DNA of 45,944 nucleotides. Source: a virus (taxonomy: Duplodnaviria; Caudoviricetes). Both the position numbers and the translations under genes were made by a program. Shown piece by piece: positions 1,547-19,185 of the stretch (positions within the stretch are counted from its first letter, which is position 1; every line of letters begins with the position of its first letter). The stretch lies in IMG/VR virus record IMGVR_UViG_3300042401_002914, positions 1-45,944 of that record. One strand, given 5' to 3'. The notes under the pieces are model-generated. The model ran no database searches and was not told where the DNA came from. It worked only from the letters and a program-made list of their open reading frames with translations.

Positions 1547-2917
1547 ATGACAAATGAAGTTTATTTTCCATTCAATATTTATTTAATTGAAAAAGATGGA
1601 AATAGTTATAAATTTGGAGTAAATGGAGGGGATATAAATTCTTTTGTATTCAATACATATGTATCAGAATTTTCATCTAATAATTTTATTCCACCAGTAG
1701 AAGACTCTAATTTAGCTAATAAGAATCCTTTTTATCCTAGAAATTCTTCTGGTAAACCTTTATTTGATTATAATGAAAATTTAGATCAAGATGAAAAAGA
1801 AGTTCAAGAAAGAGTAACTTTTACAATACAAGATAGTTGCGATGTATATTTGACTATTCCTAAAATACCAGCTTCTTTTTATGATTATCAAGCGGATAAA
1901 TCAAAATGGTATTATGGTTCAGCTCCTTCTGATTTTATAAATCAGTTTACTATTGTTACTTCAGCAGATGAAGGGTTCAATGAAAAATATTTAAAAAATA
2001 CTCTTACGAAAGGTGATAAAGGAGAGCCGAATTTATTACCAGCAGGTTTTGTTTATTTAAACGATGAAGATTTTCCCGGCAGGATATATATAAAAATAGC
2101 TAATATACAAATAAATAATAATGGAGTTTCTATAAATTATTTTTTTAGATCTAATGTTATTTCTCCTCTTAGATATTTTAGATTAGGTAGTTTAAAAATG
2201 AGAAATATTAAAATAATTTTTAAAACTATTTCAGAATATCCATCCGAAACTTTTTTACCATCTAAAGAAACAAAAACTATAAAAGGAATGGAGGATGATC
2301 CTTTAACTGATGCAGATGAGTCTACAGAAGATGAAGAAGTTGAAATTCCTTTTAATATGGCAAAAGTTTGGCTTCCTATAATTGGGGCTCAAGAAACTAT
2401 TTCAACATTTGATAGCCCATATCTTTTTAATAAATCTATAAGTGAAATAGAAAATTCATGTAAAAAATTAATAGAAAATAAAATAAATTTTATTAATAAT
2501 TCTTATTTTTATGGAACTTATTCAGGTAGAACAAGTGGAGCTCAGGGTTATTCAAGCGCATTCTATAAATCATTAGGCGCTAAATATAAAAAAAATAAAG
2601 TTAAAGTATATCAAATAATTCTCATTTATAAAGAGACTACAAATGGAAAATTAATTGTTAAAAATTTGTTTGAAGATGTAGTAGCTTATAACGCATTAAT
2701 AAATGGAGTTAAACAAAAAAATTCTAAAATTTTTCAATCATCAGGATTTTCAAATACGGCAAAAGAAGTTGTAGAAAAAAAACCAATGACGGAAACTGAG
2801 GCTTATATTTTATTAAATTTAGAAGAAACACTACTTCAAAGAAAAGAAGGTAAACCCGATAAATACATAAAACTCAATCCTGATAAAATTGTAGAACTAA
2901 TTGGTTTTGCTAAATAG
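1547..2917 (+). CDS. Hypothetical protein (possibly tail/virion)
   Basis: 456-aa ORF tightly packed after the previous gene. No recognisable motif; the virion role is inferred from position only. Confidence 0.65.
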   Translation: MTNEVYFPFNIYLIEKDGNSYKFGVNGGDINSFVFNTYVSEFSSNNFIPPVEDSNLANKNPFYPRNSSGKPLFDYNENLDQDEKEVQERVTFTIQDSCDVYLTIPKIPASFYDYQADKSKWYYGSAPSDFINQFTIVTSADEGFNEKYLKNTLTKGDKGEPNLLPAGFVYLNDEDFPGRIYIKIANIQINNNGVSINYFFRSNVISPLRYFRLGSLKMRNIKIIFKTISEYPSETFLPSKETKTIKGMEDDPLTDADESTEDEEVEIPFNMAKVWLPIIGAQETISTFDSPYLFNKSISEIENSCKKLIENKINFINNSYFYGTYSGRTSGAQGYSSAFYKSLGAKYKKNKVKVYQIILIYKETTNGKLIVKNLFEDVVAYNALINGVKQKNSKIFQSSGFSNTAKEVVEKKPMTETEAYILLNLEETLLQRKEGKPDKYIKLNPDKIVELIGFAK

Positions 2918-2937
2918 TAGAAAATTTAAAAAAGTTG

Positions 2938-2966
2938 TTGACAAACGAAATTTTATACTCTATGGG
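2938..2966 (+). promoter_or_regulatory. Possible sigma70-like promoter for the structured RNA
   Basis: Perfect TTGACA at 2938-2943; the -10 is poor (TATGGG at 17-nt spacing). Confidence 0.35.
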
Positions 2967-2985
2967 TGAAAAGTTAATTTAAATA

Positions 2986-3369
2986 GCGGCCTCATTTGCC
3001 GCAATGGGTCCGGGACTCCCAAAGCCGGATGTCATTCAAGAAAATCGCATGGTGCTCTGACTCGGGACTTGTCAACACCAACATCCGAAAGGGTGCACCG
3101 AAGTTGAGAGTTTGAGTGCTTGTTCAGTAGTTTCTACAGCTACGATCTAATAAATCTAGTGGGCAGATGAATAAGTCGGTTGGGTAAAGGGCTTCTATCC
3201 AATTTTGATACGTCAATAAGAACCTCATGGGTCGCCGAAAGGCGAGTCCAAACTGACTAAAGGAAACTTTTTTAAGCAAGCGATTTAAACTTGTTCAGGC
3301 ATACAAATACCTCTGTTTTTTTTCAAAAACAGGTGGGTAAGAAGTCCCCTGACTAGAAGGAAAGCTTCT
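2986..3369 (+). ncRNA. Putative large structured non-coding RNA, family unassigned
   Basis: No ORF of 60 aa or more; visibly GC-richer than its flanks. About ten hairpins, including three GAAA tetraloops (3087-90, 3237-40, 3263-66) and one UACG loop (3209-12). Long helix 3110-3124/3275-3290. Loop GGGACTT 3064-70 is complementary to AAGTCCC 3342-48. G-U pairs orient it on +. Confidence 0.75.
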
Positions 3370-3433
3370 TATTATTCTTCCTTTATGTATTTATATGTAT
3401 ATAGTATATTTATATAAGAGACATATTATATTA

Positions 3434-3461
3434 TTGACTTTATAAAAATAGAGATTAATTT
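3434..3461 (+). promoter_or_regulatory. sigma70-like promoter TTGACT-N16-TAATTT
   Basis: -35 at 3434-39, -10 at 3456-61; the expected start site falls near ATG 3468, suggesting a leaderless mRNA. Confidence 0.4.
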
Positions 3462-3812
3462 ATGAGTATGAATTTTAAAACAAAAGATAGTGGAGCTAGA
3501 CAAAGTTTTGAATCTGGAGCAAAAAGAGATACTCAAGAAGGGAAACCTAGATTTGATCTGATTTCTCCTTTTATGATGACCAGATTAGCTTCTTTGATGG
3601 AAAGAGGAGCTGTAAAATATGATGAATGGAATTGGGAAAAGGGAATGCCTTTTTCAAGATTCTTTGCAAGTGCATTCAGACACTTGATGCAGTATTGGAA
3701 AGGAGATAGAGATGAAGATCATCTTGCTGCTGTAATTTTCAATTTGATGGCAATCATTCACTTTGAAGAAATAGGAAGAGAAGACTTAAACGATTTAAAA
3801 AAATGGAAATAG
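3462..3812 (+). CDS. dATP/dGTP diphosphohydrolase domain protein (DUF5664)
   Basis: SGAKRD..GKPRFDLI...GAVKY..WNWEKGM...SAFRHL..W.G...EDHLAA..FN pattern typical of this phage family. Confidence 0.85.
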   Translation: MSMNFKTKDSGARQSFESGAKRDTQEGKPRFDLISPFMMTRLASLMERGAVKYDEWNWEKGMPFSRFFASAFRHLMQYWKGDRDEDHLAAVIFNLMAIIHFEEIGREDLNDLKKWK

Positions 3813-11500: not shown

Positions 11501-11509
11501 AAATTTTAA

Positions 11510-11537
11510 TTGACAAATAATATGAATGTGCTAAACT
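11510..11537 (+). promoter_or_regulatory. sigma70-like promoter TTGACA-N16-TAAACT with TGn extension
   Basis: TTGACA 11510-15, TG 11529-30, TAAACT 11532-37. Confidence 0.45.
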
Positions 11538-11695
11538 CAGATATAGAAGTAATCGCAAATGAAATTGCATTGCAATCTATAATAGATTACACAAAAGAAG
11601 AGCTCTTAACAAAAGAGCAATCAGACAGACTAAAAGCTTTAATTATAAAGCATACAAAAATATGTTTGTTTGACACATTATCTCTATATGAATAA
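11522..11695 (+). CDS. Hypothetical protein
   Basis: Short ORF; ATG 11522 is preferred over TTG 11510, which is the -35 box. Its stop overlaps the start of the next gene. Confidence 0.45.
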   Translation: MNVLNSDIEVIANEIALQSIIDYTKEELLTKEQSDRLKALIIKHTKICLFDTLSLYE

Positions 11696-11924: not shown

Positions 11925-11939
11925 TAAGTTGATGTTTTC

Positions 11940-11974
11940 TCCCGCTCCTTTAATTAGGGGCGGGATTATTTTTT
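11940..11974 (+). terminator. Rho-independent terminator
   Basis: TCCCGCTCCT-ttaatt-AGGGGCGGGA stem followed by TTATTTTTT. Confidence 0.85.
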
Positions 11975-11993
11975 AAAGTGTATTCTTTTATCT

Positions 11994-12185
11994 ATGGAAA
12001 ATAAAATGGAAACATGTAAATTCAGATCAGATACAGTTGCAGAGTATGGACCTCCATGCTGTTCATCTAAAAGATCTGTTGGTTATTATTGTTTGGAACG
12101 TGGAATCCACGGTCTAACAGATGAAGTTTGCAACTCTTGTGAGTTGTATTCTTCGAAAACTCAGGGATTAGAACAAGTAGAATAA
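11994..12185 (+). CDS. Small Cys-rich protein
   Basis: 63 aa with six Cys (C, CC, C, CxxC). Confidence 0.6.
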   Translation: MENKMETCKFRSDTVAEYGPPCCSSKRSVGYYCLERGIHGLTDEVCNSCELYSSKTQGLEQVE

Positions 12186-12201
12186 AAAAAATTATAATAA
12201 T

Positions 12202-18979: not shown

Positions 18980-19147
18980 TCATTTTTTTATATTGCTAAC
19001 TATTTTAATGCTTTGTACGCCTTGTACGCCTTGGACGCCTTGGATGCCTTGGATGCCTTGGATGCCTTGGATGCCTTGTACTCCTTGTACTCCTTGGATT
19101 CCTTGAACACCTTGTAAACTTTTATTTTTTTTTGTTTTAGAATTCAT
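18980..19147 (-). CDS. 55-aa collagen-like mini-protein, (G-V/I-Q)x11
   Basis: Manual translation: [12 protein letters not shown](GVQ/GIQ)11[10 protein letters not shown]. Synonymous codon variation occurs within the repeat. Absent from the ORF track (shorter than its shortest ORFs). Confidence 0.75.
19013..19114. repeat. 9-bp tandem repeat, about 11 copies (e.g. CCTTGGATG, CCTTGTACG)
   Basis: Directly visible; encodes the Gly-X-Gln triplets on the minus strand. Confidence 0.95.
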
Positions 19148-19185
19148 ATATTCATTTACACTTATTTCATTAAATTATATATATA

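Follow-up and report, generated by a model that had tools for sequence, protein, structure and literature searches.

We find that the longest gap between genes in a stretch of DNA from an uncultured lake phage very likely encodes a functional, folded RNA of about 385 nt, because the gap is conserved beyond the silent sites of nearby genes and predicted base pairs are kept in relatives. The stretch that was analyzed (hereafter, the window) is 45,944 nt long and is part of a large genome (IMG/VR record IMGVR_UViG_3300042401_002914). The gap is under strong purifying selection despite being non-coding, and the RNA, which is absent from Rfam 15, appears from its sequence to be a new family of narrow range among the large orphan phage RNAs. 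An earlier reading of the window, made from its letters alone (the sequence-only reading), had singled out the same stretch as a phage non-coding RNA or ribozyme, possibly of an undescribed class; a non-coding RNA absent from Rfam is supported by the conservation, the pair-keeping changes, and the negative Rfam searches described below, and activity as a ribozyme is hypothetical.

Gene context of the gap

Every long ORF around the gap lies on the + strand. The gap covers 2918-3461 (544 nt; the next largest in the window are 277 and 206 nt), and the G+C content of 2986-3369 is 0.448; the window as a whole has 0.30, and no other sampled 384-nt stretch exceeds 0.414. The descriptions of it as the only long ORF-free gap and as GC-richer than the rest therefore stand, and the sequences listed in the sequence-only reading were all found in place. 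The genes up to 2917 had no Pfam or PHROG match, and a search with the upstream 456-aa protein gave no relative. The gene at 3462, with its dATP/dGTP diphosphohydrolase domain, is the first of the nucleotide-metabolism and replication genes, which include those for a glycosyltransferase, ClpP, ribonucleotide reductase, a recombinase, a helicase, a primase, and DNA polymerase III. ARAGORN detected no tRNA or tmRNA gene in the window, and a host search gave just 24-26% matches among the matches listed (10).

Elsewhere in the window, a gap between + ORFs at 18980-19185 contains a 9-nt tandem repeat (CCTTGGATG type) that reads as Gly-X-Gln repeats on the minus strand and is possibly a short collagen-like ORF. 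The gaps at 11501-11669 and 11925-12201 seemingly have small unlisted ORFs inside them; a TTGACA box (11510) and what looks like a terminator hairpin (near 11940) were also seen there.

Conservation among related loci

Using the downstream protein as query, we assembled 74 viral loci and 80 metagenome loci (kept from 153). The gap RNA was present in five of the viral and five of the metagenome loci, all among the closest relatives. Our alignment of the RNA comprises seven variants, the window included; within the RNA no two are less than 92% alike, and they form two clades, so that few independent events are recorded.

The window and the relative L279 differ at 30 of 380 sites in the RNA. For the four-fold degenerate sites of four neighbouring genes the count is 78 of 216, and for the flanks it is 25 of 56. 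Among the relatives the gene upstream of the RNA is highly variable and both flanks vary, while the RNA itself is kept. L279 additionally carries a 368-aa gene, which from its sequence motifs we take to be UDP-galactopyranose mutase-like, inserted between the RNA and the diphosphohydrolase gene. The low divergence of the RNA, the variable upstream gene, and this insertion together indicate that selection acts on the non-coding stretch itself. They also bear on the proposal in the sequence-only reading that homologs be sought upstream of DUF5664 genes: since another gene stands between the two in L279 and only the closest loci carry the RNA, it has no fixed tie to a DUF5664-type gene, and such loci yielded few homologs.

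Predicted secondary structure

The folding energy of 2986-3369 on the + strand had a z score of -1.86, with 3 of 100 shuffles as good, so that the claim that the stretch "pairs almost throughout" does not go beyond chance by energy. The minus strand gave -1.46 and the L279 relative -1.47, and sliding 120-nt pieces fell below -2 on the + strand in only 2 of 13 cases.

The helices listed in the sequence-only reading provide a fair test of pairing because they were stated before any homolog was seen. Across the seven variants they accumulated 3 compensatory changes, 8 one-sided changes that keep the pair, and 11 that break it; four of the breaks fall in a 15-bp helix (3110-3124 with 3275-3290) and five in two hairpins where indels blur the alignment. 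Leaving out these three elements, most of the listed hairpins hold, with three compensatory and six one-sided kept changes against two broken ones, both at helix ends; the chance that a random change keeps a pair is about 0.39. The 15-bp helix itself, with its four broken pairs and a probability of 0 in all six relatives, was given up in favor of pairings at 3118-3126/3168-3176 and 3042-3048/3280-3286, the latter within the interrupted helix 3030-48/3280-3301 (probability 0.5-0.98 in the six relatives and 0.3-0.37 in the window). The TGGTG/CACCA helix loses its end pair in four of seven variants, and the alternative GGTGC/GCACC pairing that had been offered beside it is kept by both changes. 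A canonical UNCG loop is closed by C-G; the TACG loop that had been read as one is closed by A-U and does not qualify.

Our revised model, which was fitted to the same variants that score it, contains 100 pairs, with 4 compensatory, 14 one-sided kept, and no broken changes in the seven variants (Table 1). Its share of paired cells was reached by 0 of 500 shuffles and its number of pairs changed on both sides by 53 of 500; in slid controls, 33-43% of cells were paired. All 14 of the one-sided changes involve a G-U pair before or after, as expected of an RNA of the + strand but not of a DNA cruciform. From the original list the model retains the 5' hairpin, that of UCCGG/CCGGA, the two with GAAA loops (3082-95 and 3232-45), and the one at 3309-38. 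The central domain would be built from helices 3111-14/3217-20 and 3118-26/3168-76 and hairpins at 3127-43, 3178-3204, and 3205-16, and the loop of the 5' hairpin is also complementary to 3165-3171. A search for antisense matches in the window and in five related loci gave nothing long, the best being 12-16 nt and of low complexity. Separately, 3113-3122 of the window is a self-complementary UGAGURCUUG that is kept in all seven variants and lies mostly within a predicted helix.

Table 1. Predicted elements of the gap RNA, its surroundings, and a second structured RNA in relatives (window coordinates unless a locus is named)
Feature	Coordinates	Strand	Basis
Promoter-like site: TTGACA, then TAT 17 nt later	2938-2966	+	TTGACA invariant; no call in consensus scan
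Conserved AAAGTTAATTT, may belong to the RNA	2970-2980	+	Variant alignment
Predicted structured non-coding RNA, about 385 nt	2986-3369	+	Conservation, alignment, fitted model; ends approximate
5' hairpin	2986-3002	+	C-G to U-A compensatory change
Hairpin UCCGG/CCGGA	3009-3029	+	Invariant except one A-U to G-U change
Long interrupted helix closing the main domain, 5' strands (partner 3280-3301)	3030-3048	+	Invariant
Three-way junction: GGGACUU loop (3064-3070), CAUCC-GAAA-GGGUG hairpin	3050-3100	+	Two one-sided kept changes
Central multibranch domain	3105-3227	+	G-C to U-A compensatory change in 3105-08/3224-27
UCGCC-GAAA-GGCGA hairpin on 2-bp GG/CC base	3230-3249	+	Probability 1.0 in 7/7 variants
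Repeat module copy 1, AGUCC-N3-CUGACUA-AAG-GAAA-CUU	3245-3269	+	Direct repeat
Long U/A-rich hairpin	3309-3338	+	Two compensatory, three one-sided kept changes
Repeat module copy 2	3343-3367	+	Direct repeat
Variable spacer, 86% A+T, second TTGACT box at 3434	3370-3461		Variant comparison, sequence
Downstream gene, dATP/dGTP diphosphohydrolase N-terminal domain (PF18909)	3462-3812	+	Context only
Structured RNA, ~410-440 nt, directly before sigma-factor-like gene	L162:2760-3200; L184, L196	+	Compensatory changes in predicted pairs

A repeat module and two candidate pseudoknots

Both copies of the repeat module conform to AGUCC-N1-3-CUGACUA-N0-1-AAG-GAAA-(G)CUU, and an equally good direct repeat arose in 4 of 300 shuffles. 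GGGACUU at 3064-70 is invariant and complementary to AAGUCCC at 3342-48 in all seven variants; likewise, GGACUC at 3013-3018, mostly in the loop of the UCCGG/CCGGA hairpin, is complementary in all seven to GAGUCC at 3244-3249. Neither of these candidate pseudoknots shows a compensatory change in the seven variants. The strand of copy 1 (GAGUCC) fits the first loop and that of copy 2 (AAGUCCC) fits the second, the module copies differing at a position where the loops differ correspondingly (C opposite G, U opposite A). In the window, duplex energies are -10.8 and -11.9 kcal/mol for each loop with its own strand and -10.2 and -10.0 kcal/mol for the crossed pairings, which are thus only 0.6-1.9 kcal/mol weaker. 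The matched combinations are the stronger ones in all seven variants, with an exception in detail for loop 1 of L275 (-10.2 with copy 2, -9.9 with its own strand). These calculated energies offer indirect support for two loop-strand pairings, and not proof of them.

Other strands could pair in more than one way as well. The AGUCCC of copy 2 is also complementary to 3012-17, and nested folding often takes this closing stem, with a probability of 0-0.68 depending on the variant. The sequence ACUUGUUCAG occurs twice, at 3118-27 (with G at 3118 in the window) and at 3289-98, and both strands are complementary to 3168-76; their energies are equal in six of seven variants (-9.8) and are -8.2 and -7.9 in the window.

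Searches for known families and further members

The Rfam covariance scan that had been recommended gave no match in the window at gathering score, and at E<=10 the region 2850-3500 returned only three chance matches of 12.8-13.6 bits to unrelated families. We rejected tmRNA, RNase P, and the small self-cleaving ribozymes, for which Rfam and ARAGORN, covering non-permuted forms, were without match; for tmRNA, in addition, indels in L277 and L279 shift the one + frame that resembles a tag. Resemblances to twister, pistol, hatchet, hairpin, and HDV ribozymes, to the c-di-GMP riboswitch, and to RNase P, all judged from consensus motifs, were dropped because Rfam gave nothing for them.

Searches for more distant copies converged on the same few loci. 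Five DNA patterns matched viral contigs 22, 98, 32, 69, and 13 times, and each time only the same five close contigs were homologous; none of six pattern matches in bacterial genomes was. BLAST against GenBank phages matched 35 records, and among the matches listed (20) all fell on the upstream promoter stretch. One covariance model (R2), run on 35 related phage records, gave no match better than E 0.79, and another (R3) recovered only the known copies in 73 loci and 37 records, with the next best at E 0.045. Profile searches of 485 sequences yielded no further member of the family. A literature search found no description of the RNA, and the available text of PMC10085705 held nothing relevant to it. 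A search of four supplementary files of PMC10690425 for sequence words or sample numbers gave no match, and a short piece of the RNA may be among the 30-151-nt candidates of that study.

Promoter-like site and transcript data

The sequence-only reading had pointed to a TTGACA box just upstream. It is present at 2938 and invariant in all seven variants, with a varying spacer, but the hexamer 17 nt on is TATGGG, TATACA, TATATA, or TATAGG, none of them consensus, and a promoter scan made no call. The downstream gene has its own TTGACT box in six of the seven variants; L279 has none between the RNA and the next gene, which begins about 45 nt past the RNA. The A+T-rich spacer is variable and is shortened in L279, and no intrinsic terminator was found within it on the + strand.

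Part of the gap stretch was recovered in two of five sequencing runs, which had been chosen with this stretch. A freshwater metatranscriptome contained a 307-nt contig at 3004-3299, wholly inside the RNA, 95-99% like L279 and with a depth of 3.4, and nothing on the flanking 290 and 400 nt. Since pieces on the ClpP and reductase genes in the same run have a similar depth (2.5-3.8), the contig does not establish a high abundance of the RNA. The second library, run X1, is labelled as probably DNA and gave a 227-nt contig at 3065-3290. No sequence from runs X3, X4, and X5 fell on the RNA, although this does not prove that it is absent from them. Support for a transcript from these contigs is weak, and they give neither strand nor ends.

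Other RNAs and elements at the same operon head

In relatives whose glycosyltransferase is about 40% identical, the same operon is headed by other structured stretches. One such RNA, in L162, L184, and L196 (Table 1), has compensatory changes in 13 of 118 predicted pairs and contains a duplicated AAGGAAAAG..GAUGGUGG motif. It shares with the gap RNA the phage group, the location at the operon head ~1 kb upstream of the glycosyltransferase gene, and the presence of duplicated internal strands; a 15-base GGACUC-N2-3-AAAGCCGGA common to both was found by eye and may be due to chance. The downstream genes of the two RNAs differ, and neither profiles nor covariance models matched in either direction, a profile of the three L162-type variants giving no match on the gap RNA at E<=100, although so small a set could miss remote homology.

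A third structured RNA of ~370 nt, ending in a terminator-like hairpin, lies at L174:975-1350 (+) and L134:4950-5315 (-); the copies match each other at E 2.6e-18, with 26 of 72 pairs compensatory between these two sequences. Neither this RNA nor the L162 type matched Rfam. That three lineages carry three RNAs without detectable homology at the same operon head suggests a shared, unexplained need for a structured RNA.

Several further elements were seen in related contigs. Around 540-640 of five freshwater phage contigs (L181, L187, L208, L210, and L243) there is a conserved non-coding element with a GACUCC/GGAGUC hairpin beside tRNA clusters, and L170:16688-17089 is a tmRNA gene with a long insertion in its tag region. 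Six loci (L143, L156, L166, L168, L171, and L175) carry a small reverse-strand ORF ~2 kb before the glycosyltransferase gene; beside it lie repeats of ATTCAAAAAATTG-type motifs and A+T-rich DNA, and together these may be a replication origin with a DNA-binding protein. Eight contigs (L113, L126, L127, L131, L148, L152, L154, and L160) have within their first 100 nt a C-rich pyrimidine tract just before the operon promoter, and that contigs start there suggests an assembly break or a genome end at this boundary.

Possible roles of the RNA

Our leading reading, held tentatively and by analogy with the large orphan phage RNAs, is a stand-alone folded RNA with a promoter-like site of its own and loop-strand locks, serving as a protein-binding decoy or scaffold. 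It would be transcribed early, from the host-type promoter-like site at the head of the nucleotide-metabolism operon, and would fold into two 5' hairpins, a long closing helix, a three-way junction, a central multibranch domain, and two 3' modules. The pairings GGACUC(3013-18)/GAGUCC(3244-49) and GGGACUU(3064-70)/AAGUCCC(3342-48) would then lock this fold into a compact decoy or scaffold for a putative protein partner. The gene that follows the RNA is not the same in all relatives, and in six of seven variants it is preceded by a TTGACT box of its own, as would be expected if the RNA were an independent gene; the RNA may well be independent of the operon.

A 5' leader acting in cis, with two alternative folds through which it would control the operon behind it, seems unlikely to us, although several observations are in keeping with one. 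The two ACUUGUUCAG strands compete for 3168-76 at equal duplex energies in nearly all variants, and two GGGACU strands compete for AGUCCC; no terminator follows the RNA; the next gene in L279 is close by, with no second TTGAC box between; and distant relatives have other structured RNAs at the same operon head. However, no terminator/antiterminator or ribosome-site helix was found, the second promoter-like box bypasses the RNA in six of seven variants, and the downstream gene varies among relatives. By our estimate chance alone would produce about 0.1 exact repeats of 10 nt in a sequence of 384 nt, and the alternative helix has a probability of at most 0.02 in ensembles.

We regard it as improbable that the RNA is a free-standing descendant of a group I intron whose core has been remodelled and which processes either its own ends or a different RNA. 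The sequence-only reading had reported no RNase P, tmRNA, or group I core motifs; the first two absences agree with Rfam and ARAGORN, but for group I introns the RNA does show some likeness, incomplete and flawed. Set beside the T4 td intron (subgroup IA2), the gap RNA has P3-, P4-, P6-, P7.1-, P8-, and P9-like elements in group I order: a P3-like helix (3042-48/3280-86), a P4-like helix (3104-08/3224-29) topped by an A-rich loop, a P6-like helix of 2 bp followed at td spacing by 3 nt, N, a bulge, and GACUA (3250-59), then a P7.1-like GAAA hairpin, a P8-like hairpin, UAAGA followed by AGUC, and a final hairpin. With a descriptor written after the sequence had been seen and many families considered, the two sequence motifs occurred in 16 of 3000 shuffles and all parts in 2 of 3000.

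The resemblance falters at P7, the guanosine pocket of group I introns, where strand R pairs with strand S, as outlined in part of PMC3984707. The td intron has A-C-GACUA with GAGAUA-UAGUCU, whereas the gap RNA has C-U-GACUA with UAAGA-AGUCC, so that its first pair would be C-C, its bulge is U, and AAGUC replaces UAGUC; the linker before AAGUC (J8/7) is 3 nt shorter than in td, and the core carries two inserts, one of 52 nt separating P3 from P4 and one of 21 nt separating P3 from P8. The P7-like pair has a probability of 0 in nested folding, and its AGUC and GACU are parts of the repeat module and able to pair locally. Group I introns interrupt genes, whereas the gap RNA is intergenic, with flanking ORFs complete in the window and in relatives. 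No splice sites were evident, and no splicing joint was seen in the two RNA-library contigs, which is a weak test. RF00028 gave nothing at E<=10 in a record (G036) that carries the gap RNA, and model R3 did not match the td core; the Rfam result is a weak negative because Rfam at gathering score misses even the T4 td and nrdB introns. We do not class the RNA as a group I intron, although it may descend from one. There is a slim chance of something more elaborate, a free-standing RNA on a group I scaffold that lost its exons, rebuilt its active site, and has a duplicated module through which the catalytic strand can change its pairing partner; if true, this would be a new ribozyme or RNA machine made from a domesticated intron with a new job.

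A replication-origin primer or R-loop transcript, comprising promoter, structured RNA, and A+T-rich unwinding stretch, is highly improbable. The end of the RNA does adjoin the 86% A+T stretch, and repeats of short A+T-rich motifs, or pyrimidine tracts, occur at the equivalent boundary in several relatives, but the GC skew keeps its sign at the locus, the A+T stretch is not constant among variants, and a G-rich hybrid-forming tract is not evident. Scarcely credible is conservation due to DNA-level sites or to a minus-strand peptide (34 codons from an ATG at 3228, open in all seven variants) with no RNA function, since 3124-3228 has only six variable sites, mostly amino-acid changing, while silent sites elsewhere differ at 36%, the other frames, including the short + strand frames, are broken by indels, and the compensatory changes lie outside the frame or alter residues.

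Comparison with ROOL and GOLLD

Few large folded RNAs are known from bacteria and phages, and their biochemistry is often unusual, according to the portion of PMC5737381 at hand. The value of the gap RNA is limited for now by its narrow distribution and the lack of a functional clue; even so, it is small enough for direct probing and cryo-EM and presents two precise loop-strand pairings to test. Covariance models of ROOL, GOLLD, OLE, and raiA did not match it, those of ROOL and GOLLD not even at E<=10. At about 385 nt it falls below the roughly 550 nt expected of ROOL and GOLLD and is shorter than ROOL (581 nt on average) and GOLLD (often over 800 nt), it is confined to one narrow phage clade, and it lies in a window devoid of tRNA genes, whereas ROOL and GOLLD are frequently near them. 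ROOL (RF03087), GOLLD, and the gap RNA are all large multibranch RNAs from phage intergenic regions with GNRA loops and candidate pseudoknots, and the available parts of PMC5737381 and PMC12286853 leave ROOL and GOLLD, like the gap RNA, with no known function. ROOL and GOLLD are described in the latter source, as far as its available text goes, as phage RNAs with pseudoknots that form oligomers via loop pairings. By analogy, the stand-alone RNA that we favor might use its two loop-strand pairings between molecules as well as within one, making it a candidate oligomer of the ROOL and GOLLD kind.
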